A DNA stretch of 64,000 nucleotides from a virus (taxonomy: Duplodnaviria; Caudoviricetes), in IMG/VR virus record IMGVR_UViG_3300032116_022045; one strand, given 5' to 3'. The translations under genes were made by a program, and so were the position numbers. The notes under the pieces were generated by a model. That model was not told where the DNA came from and made no database searches. It was given only the letters and a program-made list of their open reading frames with translations. Of the stretch, positions 23,436 through 58,790 are shown one piece after another. Positions within the stretch are counted from its first letter, which is position 1, and each line of letters starts with the position of its first letter.

Positions 23436-23456
23436 ATTATAACAATATTTATATGT

Positions 23457-35371: not shown

Positions 35372-36052
35372 TTAATTTAATTATATTACCTTTTATTTAT
35401 TGGTATTATGTTTTATAATTAATTCACCAAGAACCTCTAAACGACCAACCTCACGCTGAAAGTCAGTTTGACTCATATCAAAACCTATTTTATCATAAGT
35501 CTCCTTAAACTCTTTCTTAGCCTTATCGATATCAAATTTACCTTCAGAAGCTTTCTTATAATATGGTAACTTAACCTTGAAATGATGCCATGTTAATAAT
35601 GAATAACCACCCTTCTCCTTCGCTGTGTTTGCTATCTTCTCAGCACCACCCTCCCTAGTATTAGCAAAATCCTTAAATGACTCGCTATCATCAAATGTCT
35701 CCCTTAATATTTTTTTTATGTCTATTGTCATATATATAAATATTGGGTTTAATACAAAAAAATAGTATCTTTGAAATTCAAATAAATATTTATCTAATAT
35801 ACTTTATACATATGAGAAAAAATACCTTAATACATGGTAAACAAAAAATAAATTATAAAAGAACTAAAGATGACTATGGTGATGATATATTATTGGTAAA
35901 TCACTATACTAAAAAATATATATTAGATAATAATATAGAAGGTTTAACTGAAATTAATTTCACACACCCAGATAAAAATGTTGACCCAGATGAATATAAT
36001 TGGGTTCTATCAATAAAAATAGATAAAGTAGTAGAAAAATTAAAAAATATTT

Positions 36053-36087
36053 GACTTCTTATAATAAACTTAGTATATTTGTATTAT
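36053..36087 (+). promoter_or_regulatory. Bacteroidota-type promoter for tRNA-Pro; a near-identical promoter lies at about 38021-38057 before tRNA-Met
   Basis: TTGACTTCT...TAGTATATTTGTATTATA in both copies (TAnnTTTG -7 box). Confidence 0.7.
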
Positions 36088-36160
36088 AAGGTAGTAGTTC
36101 AGTTGGTAGAATGCTAGTTTTGGGAACTAGTGGTCGCAAGTTCGAGCCTTGCTTACCTTA
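36088..36160 (+). tRNA. trnP: tRNA-Pro(TGG)
   Basis: Full cloverleaf; anticodon arm CTAGT-TTTGGGA-ACTAG; no encoded CCA. Confidence 0.92.
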
Positions 36161-36281
36161 CTTTTGAATTAAAAAATGGATTCAGCAAATTTTAAAAAAT
36201 TACATTGGACGTAAAAAAAACCATTTTGTTTCAAAAAAAAAAAAATAACTTTTTAATAAAGATAACATATTTATTTGTAAA

Positions 36282-36365
36282 ATGAAAAACTATTCTAACA
36301 TATTTGACTTCGCATTTTTTGCTGGTGAGGAAGATTTAAACCTCATAATGGTCAAGTTTTGTTAA
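36282..36365 (+). CDS. Attenuator leader peptide MKNYSNIFDFAFFAGEEDLNLIMVKFC
   Basis: 27-codon ORF overlapping alternative hairpins upstream of the tRNA Phe/Asp/Glu/Ala cluster. Confidence 0.75.
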   Translation: MKNYSNIFDFAFFAGEEDLNLIMVKFC

Positions 36366-36385
36366 TTTTTATTAAATAATCATAT

Positions 36386-36425
36386 AAAAAACCTTGACCA
36401 TTAAAAAGTCAAGGTTTTTTTATTT
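36386..36425 (+). terminator. Attenuator terminator (3:4 hairpin)
   Basis: AAAAAACCTTGAC-CATTAAAAA-GTCAAGGTTTTTT followed by TATTT, immediately before tRNA-Phe. Confidence 0.85.
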
Positions 36426-36498
36426 GGTATGATAGCTCCAATGGTAGAGCGCAAGTTTGAAGAACTTGGCGTTGGTGGTTCGAATCCACCTCATACCA
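36426..36498 (+). tRNA. trnF: tRNA-Phe(GAA)
   Basis: Cloverleaf; CAAGT-TTGAAGA-ACTTG. Confidence 0.93.
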
Positions 36499-36503
36499 CA
36501 AAA

Positions 36504-36575
36504 GGACTCATGGTCTAAAGGTTATGATACTTGACTGTCTATCAAGTGATTGGGGTTCGATTCCCCATGGGTTCG
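36504..36575 (+). tRNA. trnD: tRNA-Asp(GTC)
   Basis: Cloverleaf; CTTGA-CTGTCTA-TCAAG. Confidence 0.92.
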
Positions 36576-36593
36576 CAAAAAAAAAAATAATAT

Positions 36594-36666
36594 CGCACAT
36601 TCGTCTAGTGGACTAGGACATCTCCCTTTCACGGAGAAGACACGGTTTCGAATACCGTATGTGTGA
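36594..36666 (+). tRNA. trnE: tRNA-Glu(TTC)
   Basis: Cloverleaf; TCTCC-CTTTCAC-GGAGA. Confidence 0.92.
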
Positions 36667-36671
36667 CAAAT

Positions 36672-36745
36672 GGGGGCACATGTTCCAAGGCTGGCGAAAA
36701 TGATTTGCAATCAATTTGTGAAGAGTTCAATTCTCTTTGTCTCCA
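36672..36745 (+). tRNA. trnA: tRNA-Ala(TGC) with an atypical D arm
   Basis: Anticodon loop TTTGCAA; G3:U70 Ala identity pair in GGGGGCA/TGTCTCC. Confidence 0.8.
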
Positions 36746-36809
36746 CTTTTTTTGTTTAGTTGTTTTATTTTATAGTATATTTGTAATATAATTAAAACAG
36801 AATGTTAAT

Positions 36810-37472
36810 ATGGGATATAGAACATATATAGCGTCAATGCCGAAAAGAGAATATAATAAAATAAAATCAATGTCTGAAGAAGAATTGATTGAATTTTATA
36901 ATATAGAAAAAGAAGAAAATGGTTTTTGGTATAAAGGTGTATATGAATTTGGTGAAGAACTTTATGAATTTGGTAAATTTACTGATTTTAATATACCAAA
37001 AAAATTTATTAAACCTTTTTTTAAAAATGAAAAGTTAATGTTAAAATATAACGAGTATGACTTTTTTACAATTAAAAAAGAAGTTCTTGAATTGATAATA
37101 AACCATTATCAAGAAAAAATAAAAAAATATTATAATGAAATGGTTAACCCAATTTTTGGCCTAGATAATTCTGGTAACCAAATAGAATCAAATTTATTAG
37201 ATTCAATTAAAATTAAATATACTCACCCAGATAATGATTATCTGTTTGATTTATCAAACATAACCCAAAAAAAACAAAATGCTTTATATAATATGATTAA
37301 CCATGTTAAACGTATGCAAATAGAATGGGTAGATTTAACACCGTTTGATTTAAATGATGGTAAACAAATAATCACAAATTCTTGGAAATATGAATATGGT
37401 ATATTTGAACTAGTTAGAATATACAAATCTTTTGATTGGAAAAAAAATTTAATGTTCTACTATGGATACTAA
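36810..37472 (+). CDS. Hypothetical protein
   Basis: ORF track; host-type promoter upstream. Confidence 0.75.
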   Translation: MGYRTYIASMPKREYNKIKSMSEEELIEFYNIEKEENGFWYKGVYEFGEELYEFGKFTDFNIPKKFIKPFFKNEKLMLKYNEYDFFTIKKEVLELIINHYQEKIKKYYNEMVNPIFGLDNSGNQIESNLLDSIKIKYTHPDNDYLFDLSNITQKKQNALYNMINHVKRMQIEWVDLTPFDLNDGKQIITNSWKYEYGIFELVRIYKSFDWKKNLMFYYGY

Positions 37473-37530
37473 TATATAACTTATTTAATCAATAAAACTA
37501 TATATTTATATATGAAATCTTAATTTAATT

Positions 37531-38058: not shown

Positions 38059-38875
38059 TGCGGAAGAGTGAAACGGATAATCATTCAAGGCTCATACAGT
38101 TTTAAAATACTGAGAAATATTCGAACCAATAATAAAATTTAACTATTAGGTTCGTTTTTATTATTTTCACATATTTATTAATATGGGAAAGTATAATAAA
38201 GAAGAATTAGAAAAATTAATTTTAGAAGAGAATAAGAGTTATTCCGCTATAGGTAGATTGTACAATGTTTCTGGTGGTGCAATTAAAAAAGTTGCTAAGA
38301 AATATGGTATTCCATTACCAAGACGAAGAAAAGTTAATGAAAATGAAGTGTTTAGTCGTAAAGGCTATCGAAGTAACAGTTTAGTTAATAAAGTTAACGA
38401 CACTGAATTCATTTCAATAATAAAAGAGTCTAAACAATGGGTTGATGTGGCAGATAAATTAGGATATAAAAACTATTTATCTAATAACATCAAAGATTCA
38501 ATTAGAAATAGGTGCTCGATGTTAGGTATAGAGCTAAATTTAGTCCAAAGACTAGGTATTTCTGATTTAACAAAAGGTGAACTTTTTAATCATCGTAAGA
38601 ATTGGCAATCAGCAAGGTCGGCAATTCAAAAAGATGCTAGAAAGGTTTATTTCGAATCTAATACAACACCAAGTTGTGCAATCTGTGGTTATTCAAACCA
38701 TGTTGAAGTGGCTCACATTAAATCTGTGTCAGAGTTTAATGTAAGTACACCGATAGTAGTAATAAATTTGTTATCAAATCTCATAGGATTATGCCCTAAC
38801 CATCATTGGGAATATGATAACGGATTCTTGGAATTATAACCTTAGAGATAGTGGGTTCAACTCCCACATCCGCTA
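38059..38875 (+). tRNA. tRNA-Met(CAT), interrupted in the anticodon loop by a 742-nt HNH insertion
   Basis: 5' half 38059-38096 ends CAAGG-CTCATA; 3' half 38839-38875 reads A-CCTTA...GTGGG-TTCAACT-CCCAC-ATCCGCTA. Confidence 0.85.
38183..38839 (+). CDS. HNH homing endonuclease with N-terminal HTH-like repeats
   Basis: CAICGYSNHVEVAHIK...NLIGLCPNHHWEYD. Confidence 0.88.
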   Translation: MGKYNKEELEKLILEENKSYSAIGRLYNVSGGAIKKVAKKYGIPLPRRRKVNENEVFSRKGYRSNSLVNKVNDTEFISIIKESKQWVDVADKLGYKNYLSNNIKDSIRNRCSMLGIELNLVQRLGISDLTKGELFNHRKNWQSARSAIQKDARKVYFESNTTPSCAICGYSNHVEVAHIKSVSEFNVSTPIVVINLLSNLIGLCPNHHWEYDNGFLEL

Positions 38876-40407: not shown

Positions 40408-40443
40408 TTATAAATATACAATATTTTTTAAATAACAACACCA

Positions 40444-43333: not shown

Positions 43334-43879
43334 ACATTGTAAAGATACAAGGAATATTTGACACCACCAAATAAAATGTAAAAAAAATAACAGATATTCT
43401 ATTATTTTTTTTAGGTTATTTGGATTAAAAATTAATTAGAATTTAGATAGTTCCCAAATTACTAATCCAATGATTCCGATAACACCGAATGATATTGACA
43501 ATAAGACGATGTTTTTTTCAAGTTTGTTTTCCATTGTTGTTATATTAAAGTGTGTGATTGATTTATTTTTTGAAATAGGCAAAATAACTCATAATGATAC
43601 AAGCAATTAATTCTATGACCCCTATTGACAGGATTACAGGTTCATTAAACCCAAATAGGTATAAATGATTGATTAATACGATTAGTAAATAAACACCTAT
43701 AATTGGTGCTACAATACCGACAGAAGTTAAAATACTTTTAATGTTTTTCATGATGTTGTTTTTTGTTTGACTATACAAAGATAAAACAAATATTTGATAT
43801 ATCCAAATAAAATAAAAAAAACCCCATCTTTTTACAGACAGGGTTTCTCGTTCACAACTTAACCAAAAAAAAAATTAGC

Positions 43880-43967
43880 AGTCAGGACAGGATTCGAACC
43901 TATTAGGAGTTATTGACTATTACCTCCACCGCTCACTCGGTGCGTCTACCAATTCCGCCACCTGACC
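43880..43967 (-). ncRNA. tRNA-framed RNA T1 (88 nt; Leu-like D arm, non-canonical anticodon arm)
   Basis: GGTCAGG-TG-GCGGAATTGGTAGACGC...AGGTTCGAATCCTGT-CCTGACT. Confidence 0.8.
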
Positions 43968-45245: not shown

Positions 45246-45249
45246 TCGT

Positions 45250-45323
45250 AGTCAGGACAGGATTCGAACCTGTAAATGAATCAGACTAATGCAGACTCTG
45301 CGATACCATTACGCCACCTGACC
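45250..45323 (-). ncRNA. tRNA-framed RNA T4 (74 nt)
   Basis: Same acceptor and T arm; irregular anticodon arm. Confidence 0.8.
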
Positions 45324-58476: not shown

Positions 58477-58490
58477 AATTTGTTTTTAGT

Positions 58491-58561
58491 AGTCAGGACA
58501 GGATTCGAACCTGTGCATTCATTGATATCATCTCATTGCTCTACCACTGAGCTACCTGACT
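58491..58561 (-). ncRNA. tRNA-framed RNA T6 (71 nt; defective anticodon stem)
   Basis: AGTCAGG-TA-GCTCAGTGGTAGAGC...ACAGGTTCGAATCCTGT-CCTGACT. Confidence 0.8.
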
Positions 58562-58659: not shown

Positions 58660-58786
58660 AGTCAGGACAGGATTCGAACCTGTATAAAAGACAAGCAGTT
58701 AGCCCTCACGATTGTAAGAGGGTTAGGGATTATGTCTATTCCCACATTTAACATACCACTGCGTATACCAATTCCGCCACCTGACT
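58660..58786 (-). ncRNA. tRNA-framed RNA T7 (127 nt)
   Basis: Same frame; the insert has two hairpins. Confidence 0.8.
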
Positions 58787-58790
58787 ATTT

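Follow-up and report, generated by a model that had tools for sequence, protein, structure and literature searches.

Genes and RNA features at the locus

The virus record IMGVR_UViG_3300032116_022045 (IMG/VR; Caudoviricetes) carries, in the 64,000-nucleotide (nt) stretch of DNA that we analysed as a whole (hereafter, the window), a run of four tRNA genes preceded by a short open reading frame (ORF) and a hairpin with a T run, an arrangement that we examine here as a candidate leader-peptide attenuator. These elements belong to one plus-strand transcription unit, in which a promoter motif is followed by tRNA-Pro, the leader ORF, the hairpin and T run, and then genes for tRNA-Phe, tRNA-Asp, tRNA-Glu, and tRNA-Ala (Table 1). 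The window is AT-rich and phage-like (27% G+C), near-identical copies of its DNA occur in freshwater and lake metagenomes from about a dozen studies, and the product of a neighbouring gene is encoded on contigs of up to 293 kb. Its promoters have the look of those of Bacteroidota, with 39 copies of the motif TTTG-N17-21-TAnnTTTG against 6 expected.

Table 1. Features of the leader-tRNA unit and its borders, with positions in the window.
Feature	Position	Strand	Remarks
Host-type (Bacteroidota-like) promoter motif TTTG-N-TAnnTTTG	36050..36081	+	Regular-expression match; in front of tRNA-Pro
tRNA-Pro (TGG)	36088..36161	+	ARAGORN; Rfam, 63.8 bits
ATATTTAT motif	36267..36274	+	15 nt before the leader ATG; also in L001
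Leader ORF, 27 codons, ATG start	36282..36365	+	Reads MKNYSNIFDFAFFAGEEDLNLIMVKFC; length and frame the same in L001
Segment 1	36296..36309	+	Pairs with segment 2 in the untranslated leader; minimum-energy folds of window and L001
Putative regulatory codon run F D F A F F A G E E D (codons 8-18)	36303..36335	+	10 of 11 in the Phe/Asp/Ala/Glu set
Segment 2, predicted antiterminator 5' arm	36346..36364	+	Within codons 22-27 and stop; U-rich tract after it
Segment 3	36385..36403	+	Common to antiterminator (with segment 2) and terminator (with segment 4)
Segment 4 and T run, completing the intrinsic terminator	36408..36425	+	Inverted repeat
tRNA-Phe (GAA)	36426..36499	+	ARAGORN and Rfam; compensatory stem changes relative to L001
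tRNA-Asp (GTC)	36504..36576	+	ARAGORN and Rfam
tRNA-Glu (TTC)	36594..36667	+	ARAGORN and Rfam
tRNA-Ala (TGC), atypical D arm, G3:U70	36672..36745	+	Rfam, 29.4 bits; not called by ARAGORN
Host-type promoter motif of the next gene (220 amino acids, 36810-37472)	36751..36783	+	Marks the end of the tRNA unit; preceded by a T run

An original prediction, made from the letters of the DNA, had named the four downstream tRNAs as Phe-GAA, Asp-GTC, Glu-TTC, and Ala-TGC, and all four identities held. The first three are found by both programs, with Rfam scores of 55-62 bits, while the fourth was secured by a combination of observations. Specifically, its Rfam score (RF00005) reaches the gathering score of 29, it is 83% identical to the annotated tRNA-Ala of Pseudomonas phage VCM, and it has a 7-bp acceptor stem that includes G3:U70, the pair that marks alanine tRNAs. 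Further, it exhibits compensatory changes in the acceptor and T stems relative to a diverged version of the locus, L001. On this sequence evidence, the gene is accepted as a tRNA-Ala with an odd D arm. Because changes relative to L001 are compensatory, the four tRNAs appear to be under selection and functional.

The terminator that the original prediction placed just before tRNA-Phe was recovered with a 13-bp perfect stem (36386-36398 with 36408-36420), and its T run stops at 36425, one base before tRNA-Phe. Its 9-nt loop exceeds the limit of 8 used by a simple terminator scanner, which hence missed it. The possibility that the hairpin acts for the minus strand was dropped, as the neighbouring genes are on the plus strand. 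No TAnnTTTG promoter box was found inside the leader or between the leader and tRNA-Phe. Given that the terminator abuts tRNA-Phe and that the tRNAs appear functional, the four tRNAs would thus be made only by read-through of the terminator.

A leader ORF that matches the tRNAs behind it

Direct reading confirmed the 27-codon ORF and its unusual composition, in which 10 of 11 consecutive codons specify Phe, Asp, Ala, or Glu, the amino acids of the four tRNAs directly downstream. As a chance control, we scanned 11-codon windows in the 556 ORFs of 20-60 codons found in all six frames of the window. No other of these small ORFs exceeded 7/11 for this amino-acid set, and only 2 of about 59,000 open 11-codon windows reached 10. 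Asked in the opposite direction, the set of Ala, Asp, Glu, and Phe is the single best cover of the leader among all 4845 possible four-amino-acid sets. The match between the leader codons and the downstream tRNAs is beyond chance. By comparison, tRNA-Pro lies upstream of the leader and outside the switch described below, and the leader contains no Pro codon.

The leader is also headed by the octamer ATATTTAT, which in this phage is associated with gene starts: of the 33 copies that the window contains, 17 precede the start of an ORF of at least 80 amino acids by 12-58 nt (p = 3e-15), and the octamer ranks first among all 8-mers of equal composition. Copies stand, for example, at 23445, 30930, 34938, 37502, and 38171 on the plus strand and at 40417, 35743, and 34522 on the minus strand. 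Alongside the host-type TTTG...TAnnTTTG motif, the octamer probably serves as a second promoter or start signal, one specific to the phage. Since the leader is headed by it just as the real genes of the phage are, the leader looks like an expressed unit.

Mutually exclusive pairings and the position of the ribosome

The leader RNA can adopt three pairings of comparable energy, in the window and in L001 alike. In the minimum-energy fold, segment 1 pairs with segment 2 (36296-36309 with 36350-36364) around a small hairpin (36325-36346). Segment 2 can instead pair with segment 3 to form an antiterminator that overlaps the end of the ORF and is mutually exclusive with the terminator. The 11-bp perfect antiterminator first noticed (36346-36356 with 36393-36403) was confirmed and turned out to be part of a longer pairing of 19 nt, in which 17 of the 19 positions pair (89%; 36346-36364 with 36385-36403). 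The energies in the window are -18.0 kcal/mol for 1:2, -13.9 for 2:3, and -14.3 for the 3:4 terminator, and those in L001 are -16.7, -13.7, and -15.7 kcal/mol, respectively. Folded as a whole, the leader is most stable with both the 1:2 pairing and the terminator formed, and this fold has z = -4.0 relative to shuffled sequences.

Competition of this strength is particular to this terminator. Among the 16 perfect-stem terminator-like hairpins within the window, which served as a second chance control, only this one has a strong upstream competitor (-15.8 kcal/mol, z = -4.9), the next best being -8.3 kcal/mol.

The original prediction had proposed folding the leader in its three states, and we did so with the ribosome represented as a mask that reached 15 nt upstream and 13 nt downstream of the first base of the codon in the A site, folding the transcript as it would be just before segment 4 exists. 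These masked folds gave the expected switch in both the window and L001, with the antiterminator forming when the A site is at any of codons 1-19 and blocked when it is at codons 23-27 or the stop codon. The switch point hence falls between codons 19 and 23, so that the last putative regulatory codon, Asp18, is placed as far downstream as possible without covering segment 2. By analogy with trpL, the 1:2 hairpin, together with the U-rich tract that comes after it at the stop codon, could be a pause site that synchronises the ribosome and the polymerase.

Conservation in relatives of the phage

Loci for comparison were obtained through neighbouring proteins and comprised L015, L001, L013, L014, and L012. 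Of these, L015 has the same sequence as the window. The diverged version is L001, in which the 220-amino-acid neighbour is 74% identical and the whole module is kept, including the terminator, the ORF, and the codon/tRNA match; its leader reads MKTYLNIFDFAFFANEDDSSIIMVKFC, again 27 codons with the frame unchanged. It is the only diverged homologue found.

The changes between the two leaders are distributed unevenly. Within the codons for F-D-F-A-F-F-A, there are four changes, all of them synonymous and at third positions, and no replacement. We estimate the chance of four synonymous-only changes at about 0.001-0.002, as 11 of the 63 possible single changes in these codons are synonymous. In codons 15-21, by comparison, seven nucleotide changes yield five amino-acid replacements, one of which (Glu to Asp) stays within the tRNA set, which turns the L001 run into F D F A F F A N E D D. 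The antiterminator arm shows no change at all: its 26 nt, which begin with codon 22 and extend five bases beyond the stop codon, are the same in both loci, against about 82% identity for the remainder of the ORF. The inner spacer hairpin is formed in both loci from different sequences. An attenuator predicts that amino-acid identity is kept in the codon run, that nucleotides are kept in segment 2, and that the spacer is free to vary, and the pattern in L001 fits this exactly.

The remaining loci lack the module. In L013 and L014, tRNA-Pro is followed directly by an acetyltransferase gene, with no four tRNAs, leader, or terminator, and in L012 the four tRNAs, leader, and terminator are likewise all absent. 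More distant homologues of the 220-amino-acid neighbour (55-62% identical; L002 and L006-L011) have no nearby tRNAs and are therefore uninformative on the leader. No further leader homologue was found with exact or degenerate patterns in viral (IMG/VR) contigs or in scans of JGI metagenome contigs, and searches with blastn and tblastn against GenBank phages returned tRNA-level or remote matches only. One pattern match, in a giant-virus contig with no tRNA, was set aside as chance. Four lake metagenome runs covering the region contained no variant within the leader and hence added no covariation.

Proposed mechanism and its alternatives

All of the features of a leader-peptide attenuator that can be computed from a sequence are present at this locus, namely, the ORF, its codons, the terminator, the antiterminator, the 1:2 hairpin, and their spacing, in support of the trp-type architecture recognised in the original prediction. 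We therefore favour, with a probability of roughly 0.7, the reading that the four phage tRNA genes are under the control of a multivalent, trp-type leader-peptide attenuator of transcription. In the mechanism we propose, transcription would start upstream of the leader, with the ATATTTAT motif and the host-type promoter in front of tRNA-Pro as the two candidate start sites, and a ribosome would translate the leader while RNA polymerase proceeds. When charged tRNA-Phe, tRNA-Asp, tRNA-Ala, and tRNA-Glu are plentiful, the ribosome would reach codons 23-27 or the stop codon and cover segment 2, upon which segments 3 and 4 would form the terminator and transcription would end one base before tRNA-Phe. 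When any of the four is scarce, the ribosome would stall on codons 8-18 and leave segment 2 free to pair with segment 3 as soon as the latter is made, such that no terminator would form and the Phe-Asp-Glu-Ala tRNA genes would be transcribed. The supply of precisely these four tRNAs would thereby be held steady by negative feedback.

It had originally been claimed that the phage transcribes these replacement tRNAs only when they are depleted. As written, that functional claim does not hold; the sequence suggests that the phage probably withholds its Phe, Asp, Glu, and Ala tRNAs unless ribosomes are slow at the corresponding codons. Candidate causes of a shortage are a mismatch in codon usage, cleavage of host tRNAs, or host shut-off, while a trigger by anticodon nucleases or starvation, as first proposed, is speculation.

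Several observations weigh against the attenuator. The mechanism supposes a translated leader, a response to tRNA supply, and coupling between ribosome and polymerase, the last being assumed for the host group and for the phage. The context of the leader start codon is mediocre, scoring above 85% of all ATGs and below 86% of long-ORF starts in a position-weight matrix. Within the ORF, codon 15 (Gly in the window, Asn in L001) falls outside the tRNA set, and one Phe codon, F26, sits within segment 2. The conservation statistics derive from a single diverged homologue and 15 substitutions in the ORF. In that homologue, the change of the loop from ATT to ACC removes two pairs of the 11-bp perfect antiterminator, and no compensating change restores them. 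The 1:2 pairing in the form originally given is weakened in L001 as well; such a pairing is indeed part of the minimum-energy fold, but its register differs somewhat from the one first described, which L001 does not keep by compensation. Finally, the full-length leader at equilibrium favours the terminator for most stall positions. Because it does so, and because terminator and antiterminator are equally stable, antitermination would have to be kinetic, as it is in classical attenuators.

These points leave room for other explanations, of which the plainest is an ordinary small-protein gene that happens to be followed by an ordinary terminator, with the tRNAs supplied by leaky constitutive read-through and the composition match being a coincidence. 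The unremarkable start context agrees with this, and the synonymous-only changes in F-D-F-A-F-F-A reflect selection on the peptide that would be equally expected of any functional peptide. A coincidence of composition, however, would have to be reconciled with a match unique among 556 small ORFs, with {A,D,E,F} being the best of 4845 sets, and with a similar composition match in the phage phiCbK (see below). It would further leave unexplained why this terminator alone is opposed by a 17/19-bp competitor pairing, why codons 22-27 are invariant in their nucleotides, wobble positions included, and why the codon run is placed just far enough upstream of segment 2. We consider such a gene an unlikely source of the pattern.

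Alternatively, the switch could depend on translation without the codon content being of more than secondary importance, reporting general translation capacity (slowdown, ribosome shortage, or host shut-off) in a manner comparable to the ermC and cat leaders, which respond to ribosomes stalled by drugs. The geometry needs only a slow ribosome somewhere in codons 1-19, and a sensor that reads four amino acids is already broad. A general sensor does not account for the amino-acid identity of the run having been kept through four synonymous changes while neighbouring codons drifted, nor for the amino-acid set of the run being that of the downstream tRNAs, and we regard it as quite improbable. The alternative structures would be present regardless of whether the ORF is translated, and so an RNA-only or protein-mediated switch, operated by an RNA-binding protein of the phage or the host, a small RNA, or, as in a T-box, an uncharged tRNA, could in principle use them with the ORF left untranslated. 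Yet such a switch leaves unexplained the frame-aware substitutions and the conserved ORF length, and neither a T-box nor any other Rfam cis-regulatory family matched at E values up to 10. Of a switch that ignores the ORF, we think there is very little chance.

Relation to known attenuators and to phage phiCbK

The enterobacterial leaders trpL, hisL, pheL, and leuL, as well as the multivalent thrL and ilvL, combine a short leader ORF and regulatory codons with a 1:2 pairing, a 2:3 antiterminator, and a 3:4 terminator. The proposed attenuator resembles them in that the position of the ribosome would pick the structure and the terminator lies directly before the regulated genes, and it resembles thrL and ilvL in that several amino acids would be sensed at once. 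It departs from them in its targets, which are the tRNAs that read the regulatory codons rather than the genes for biosynthesis, transport, or aminoacyl-tRNA synthetases that characterise leader-peptide attenuators, so that tRNA supply, not amino-acid supply, would be controlled. It also differs in occurring in a phage with Bacteroidota-type promoters and in having no similarity to leaders in Rfam. Specifically, an Rfam cmscan over 35900-36900, at E values up to 10, returned only the tRNAs above threshold and chance-level matches, with no T-box (RF00230) and no leader family, the unmatched families including the Trp, His, Leu, Thr, and Phe leaders and Bacteroid-trp.

In Escherichia coli, the pheST operon is controlled by the pheM leader, whose Phe codons sense charged tRNA-Phe and thereby control the synthetase. 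Like that system, the phage locus would control a component of the translation apparatus and not a biosynthetic pathway; unlike it, the target is tRNA genes in place of a synthetase, four amino acids are involved in place of one, and the setting is viral instead of chromosomal. T-box riboswitches are similar in reading tRNA status and in choosing between terminator and antiterminator ahead of translation-related genes, but they work without translation, the uncharged tRNA being bound directly by the RNA at its specifier codon and T-box sequence, whereas the phage locus has a conserved ORF. The Bacteroid-trp motif (RF01692; listed in PMC2864571) is a candidate cis-regulatory leader in Bacteroidetes. 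It differs from the phage element in standing upstream of tryptophan biosynthesis genes, and it does not match the window sequence. We take Bacteroid-trp to be a Trp leader; if that is right, the host group can use such leaders.

A possible parallel exists in the cultured Caulobacter phage phiCbK (NC_019405.1, 49540-50937), where an annotated 45-codon gene, gp335, and an annotated rho-independent terminator stand directly before a block of tRNA genes. With default ARAGORN settings, the tRNAs of this block (Pro, Lys, Leu, Ala, and Ser) account for 31 of the 45 gp335 residues (p = 5e-6). Relaxed settings add a Thr-like and a His-like gene in unannotated gaps (L017:2256-2328 and L017:2903-2979), which raises the count to 41/45 (p = 2e-11). 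Of the seven identities that match, Ala, Thr, and His come from ARAGORN calls alone, those of Thr and His at the relaxed threshold only. Thr and His are the identities that gp335 would predict for these gaps. In the published phiCbK annotation, tRNAs for Thr, His, and Ala are absent, and attenuation goes unmentioned by its authors (PMC3556154), so that the parallel is suggestive only. The two loci share a small ORF, a terminator that abuts a tRNA block, and a peptide made largely of the amino acids of that block, and they differ in phage, host, and amino-acid set, which are unrelated, and in the greater length of the phiCbK ORF.

In full-text literature searches, we came across no account of tRNA genes under leader-peptide attenuation, in keeping with the original statement that no phage tRNA operon under translational attenuation was known. 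On balance, we lean towards the view that phages run self-sensing tRNA homeostats, in which a translated codon checklist gates the cognate tRNA genes, and that the locus presented here is a compact four-amino-acid case of a widespread and apparently unpublished class that includes phiCbK.

Neighbouring features and the borders of the module

Upstream of the leader, the host-type motif in front of tRNA-Pro could act as an early promoter for the entire unit. Over the roughly 120 nt between tRNA-Pro and the leader, no terminator and no significant structure were found (fold z = +0.9). A TAnnTTTG box, TACTTTTG, at 36159-36166 overlaps the 3' end of tRNA-Pro. The approximately 70 nt right after tRNA-Pro (36162-36235 in the window, L001:4106-4180, L013:2914-2985) are more than 90% conserved, and this holds even where the phages' neighbouring protein is 62-69% identical.

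A module of about 1.2 kb (36252-37478), comprising the leader, the terminator, the four tRNAs, a promoter, and the 220-amino-acid gene, is present in the window and L001 and not in L013 (2895-3045) or L014. In the window, it is flanked by short direct ATAACTT repeats (ATAACTTTTTAAT on the left, ATAACTTATTTAAT on the right), and it has the look of a cassette that was acquired or lost through recombination at short homologies. At the corresponding place in L012, directly after tRNA-Pro, there is an IS605-type element (L012:1273-2756) that consists of a Y1 transposase fragment and a TnpB/Cas12f-like ORF. The 220-amino-acid protein itself has no Pfam or PHROG match and several hundred metagenome homologues at 52-62% identity, on contigs of up to 629 kb; its family is large, well conserved, and uncharacterised.

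Other tRNA genes of these phages show variation of their own. In L013 and L014, an intact tRNA-Met (CAT) follows the acetyltransferase gene (L013:3566-3641 and L014:1935-2010); at the corresponding place in the window (38183-38839), there is an ORF for an HNH endonuclease, and ARAGORN calls no tRNA-Met. Further, the minus strand of the window bears tRNA-like genes at 43878-43967, 45248-45323, 58489-58561, and about 58660-58790 that share one acceptor stem (GTCAGG/CCTGAC) and one T arm. Different and sometimes long inserts replace their anticodon arms, ARAGORN reads them as Cys, Ser, and one with a two-base anticodon, and each stands behind a repeated terminator-plus-promoter cassette.

Implications for phage tRNA genes

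The textbook cases of leader-peptide attenuation concern genes for amino-acid synthesis or for the charging of tRNAs; the mechanism is not known for tRNA genes themselves, which would be the novelty here. If the attenuator reading is true, phage tRNA genes would be made on demand, through feedback read by the ribosome, and not constitutively. This would bear on why phages carry tRNAs at all, be it to top up codon usage, to make good the loss or cleavage of host tRNAs, or to cope with host shut-off. The leader would be a directly testable sensor, as it would state which tRNAs the phage expects to run short, and leader peptides of this kind could be used to predict or validate atypical phage tRNA genes. 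Finally, phages of Bacteroidota-type hosts would be added to the known range of ribosome-mediated attenuation.

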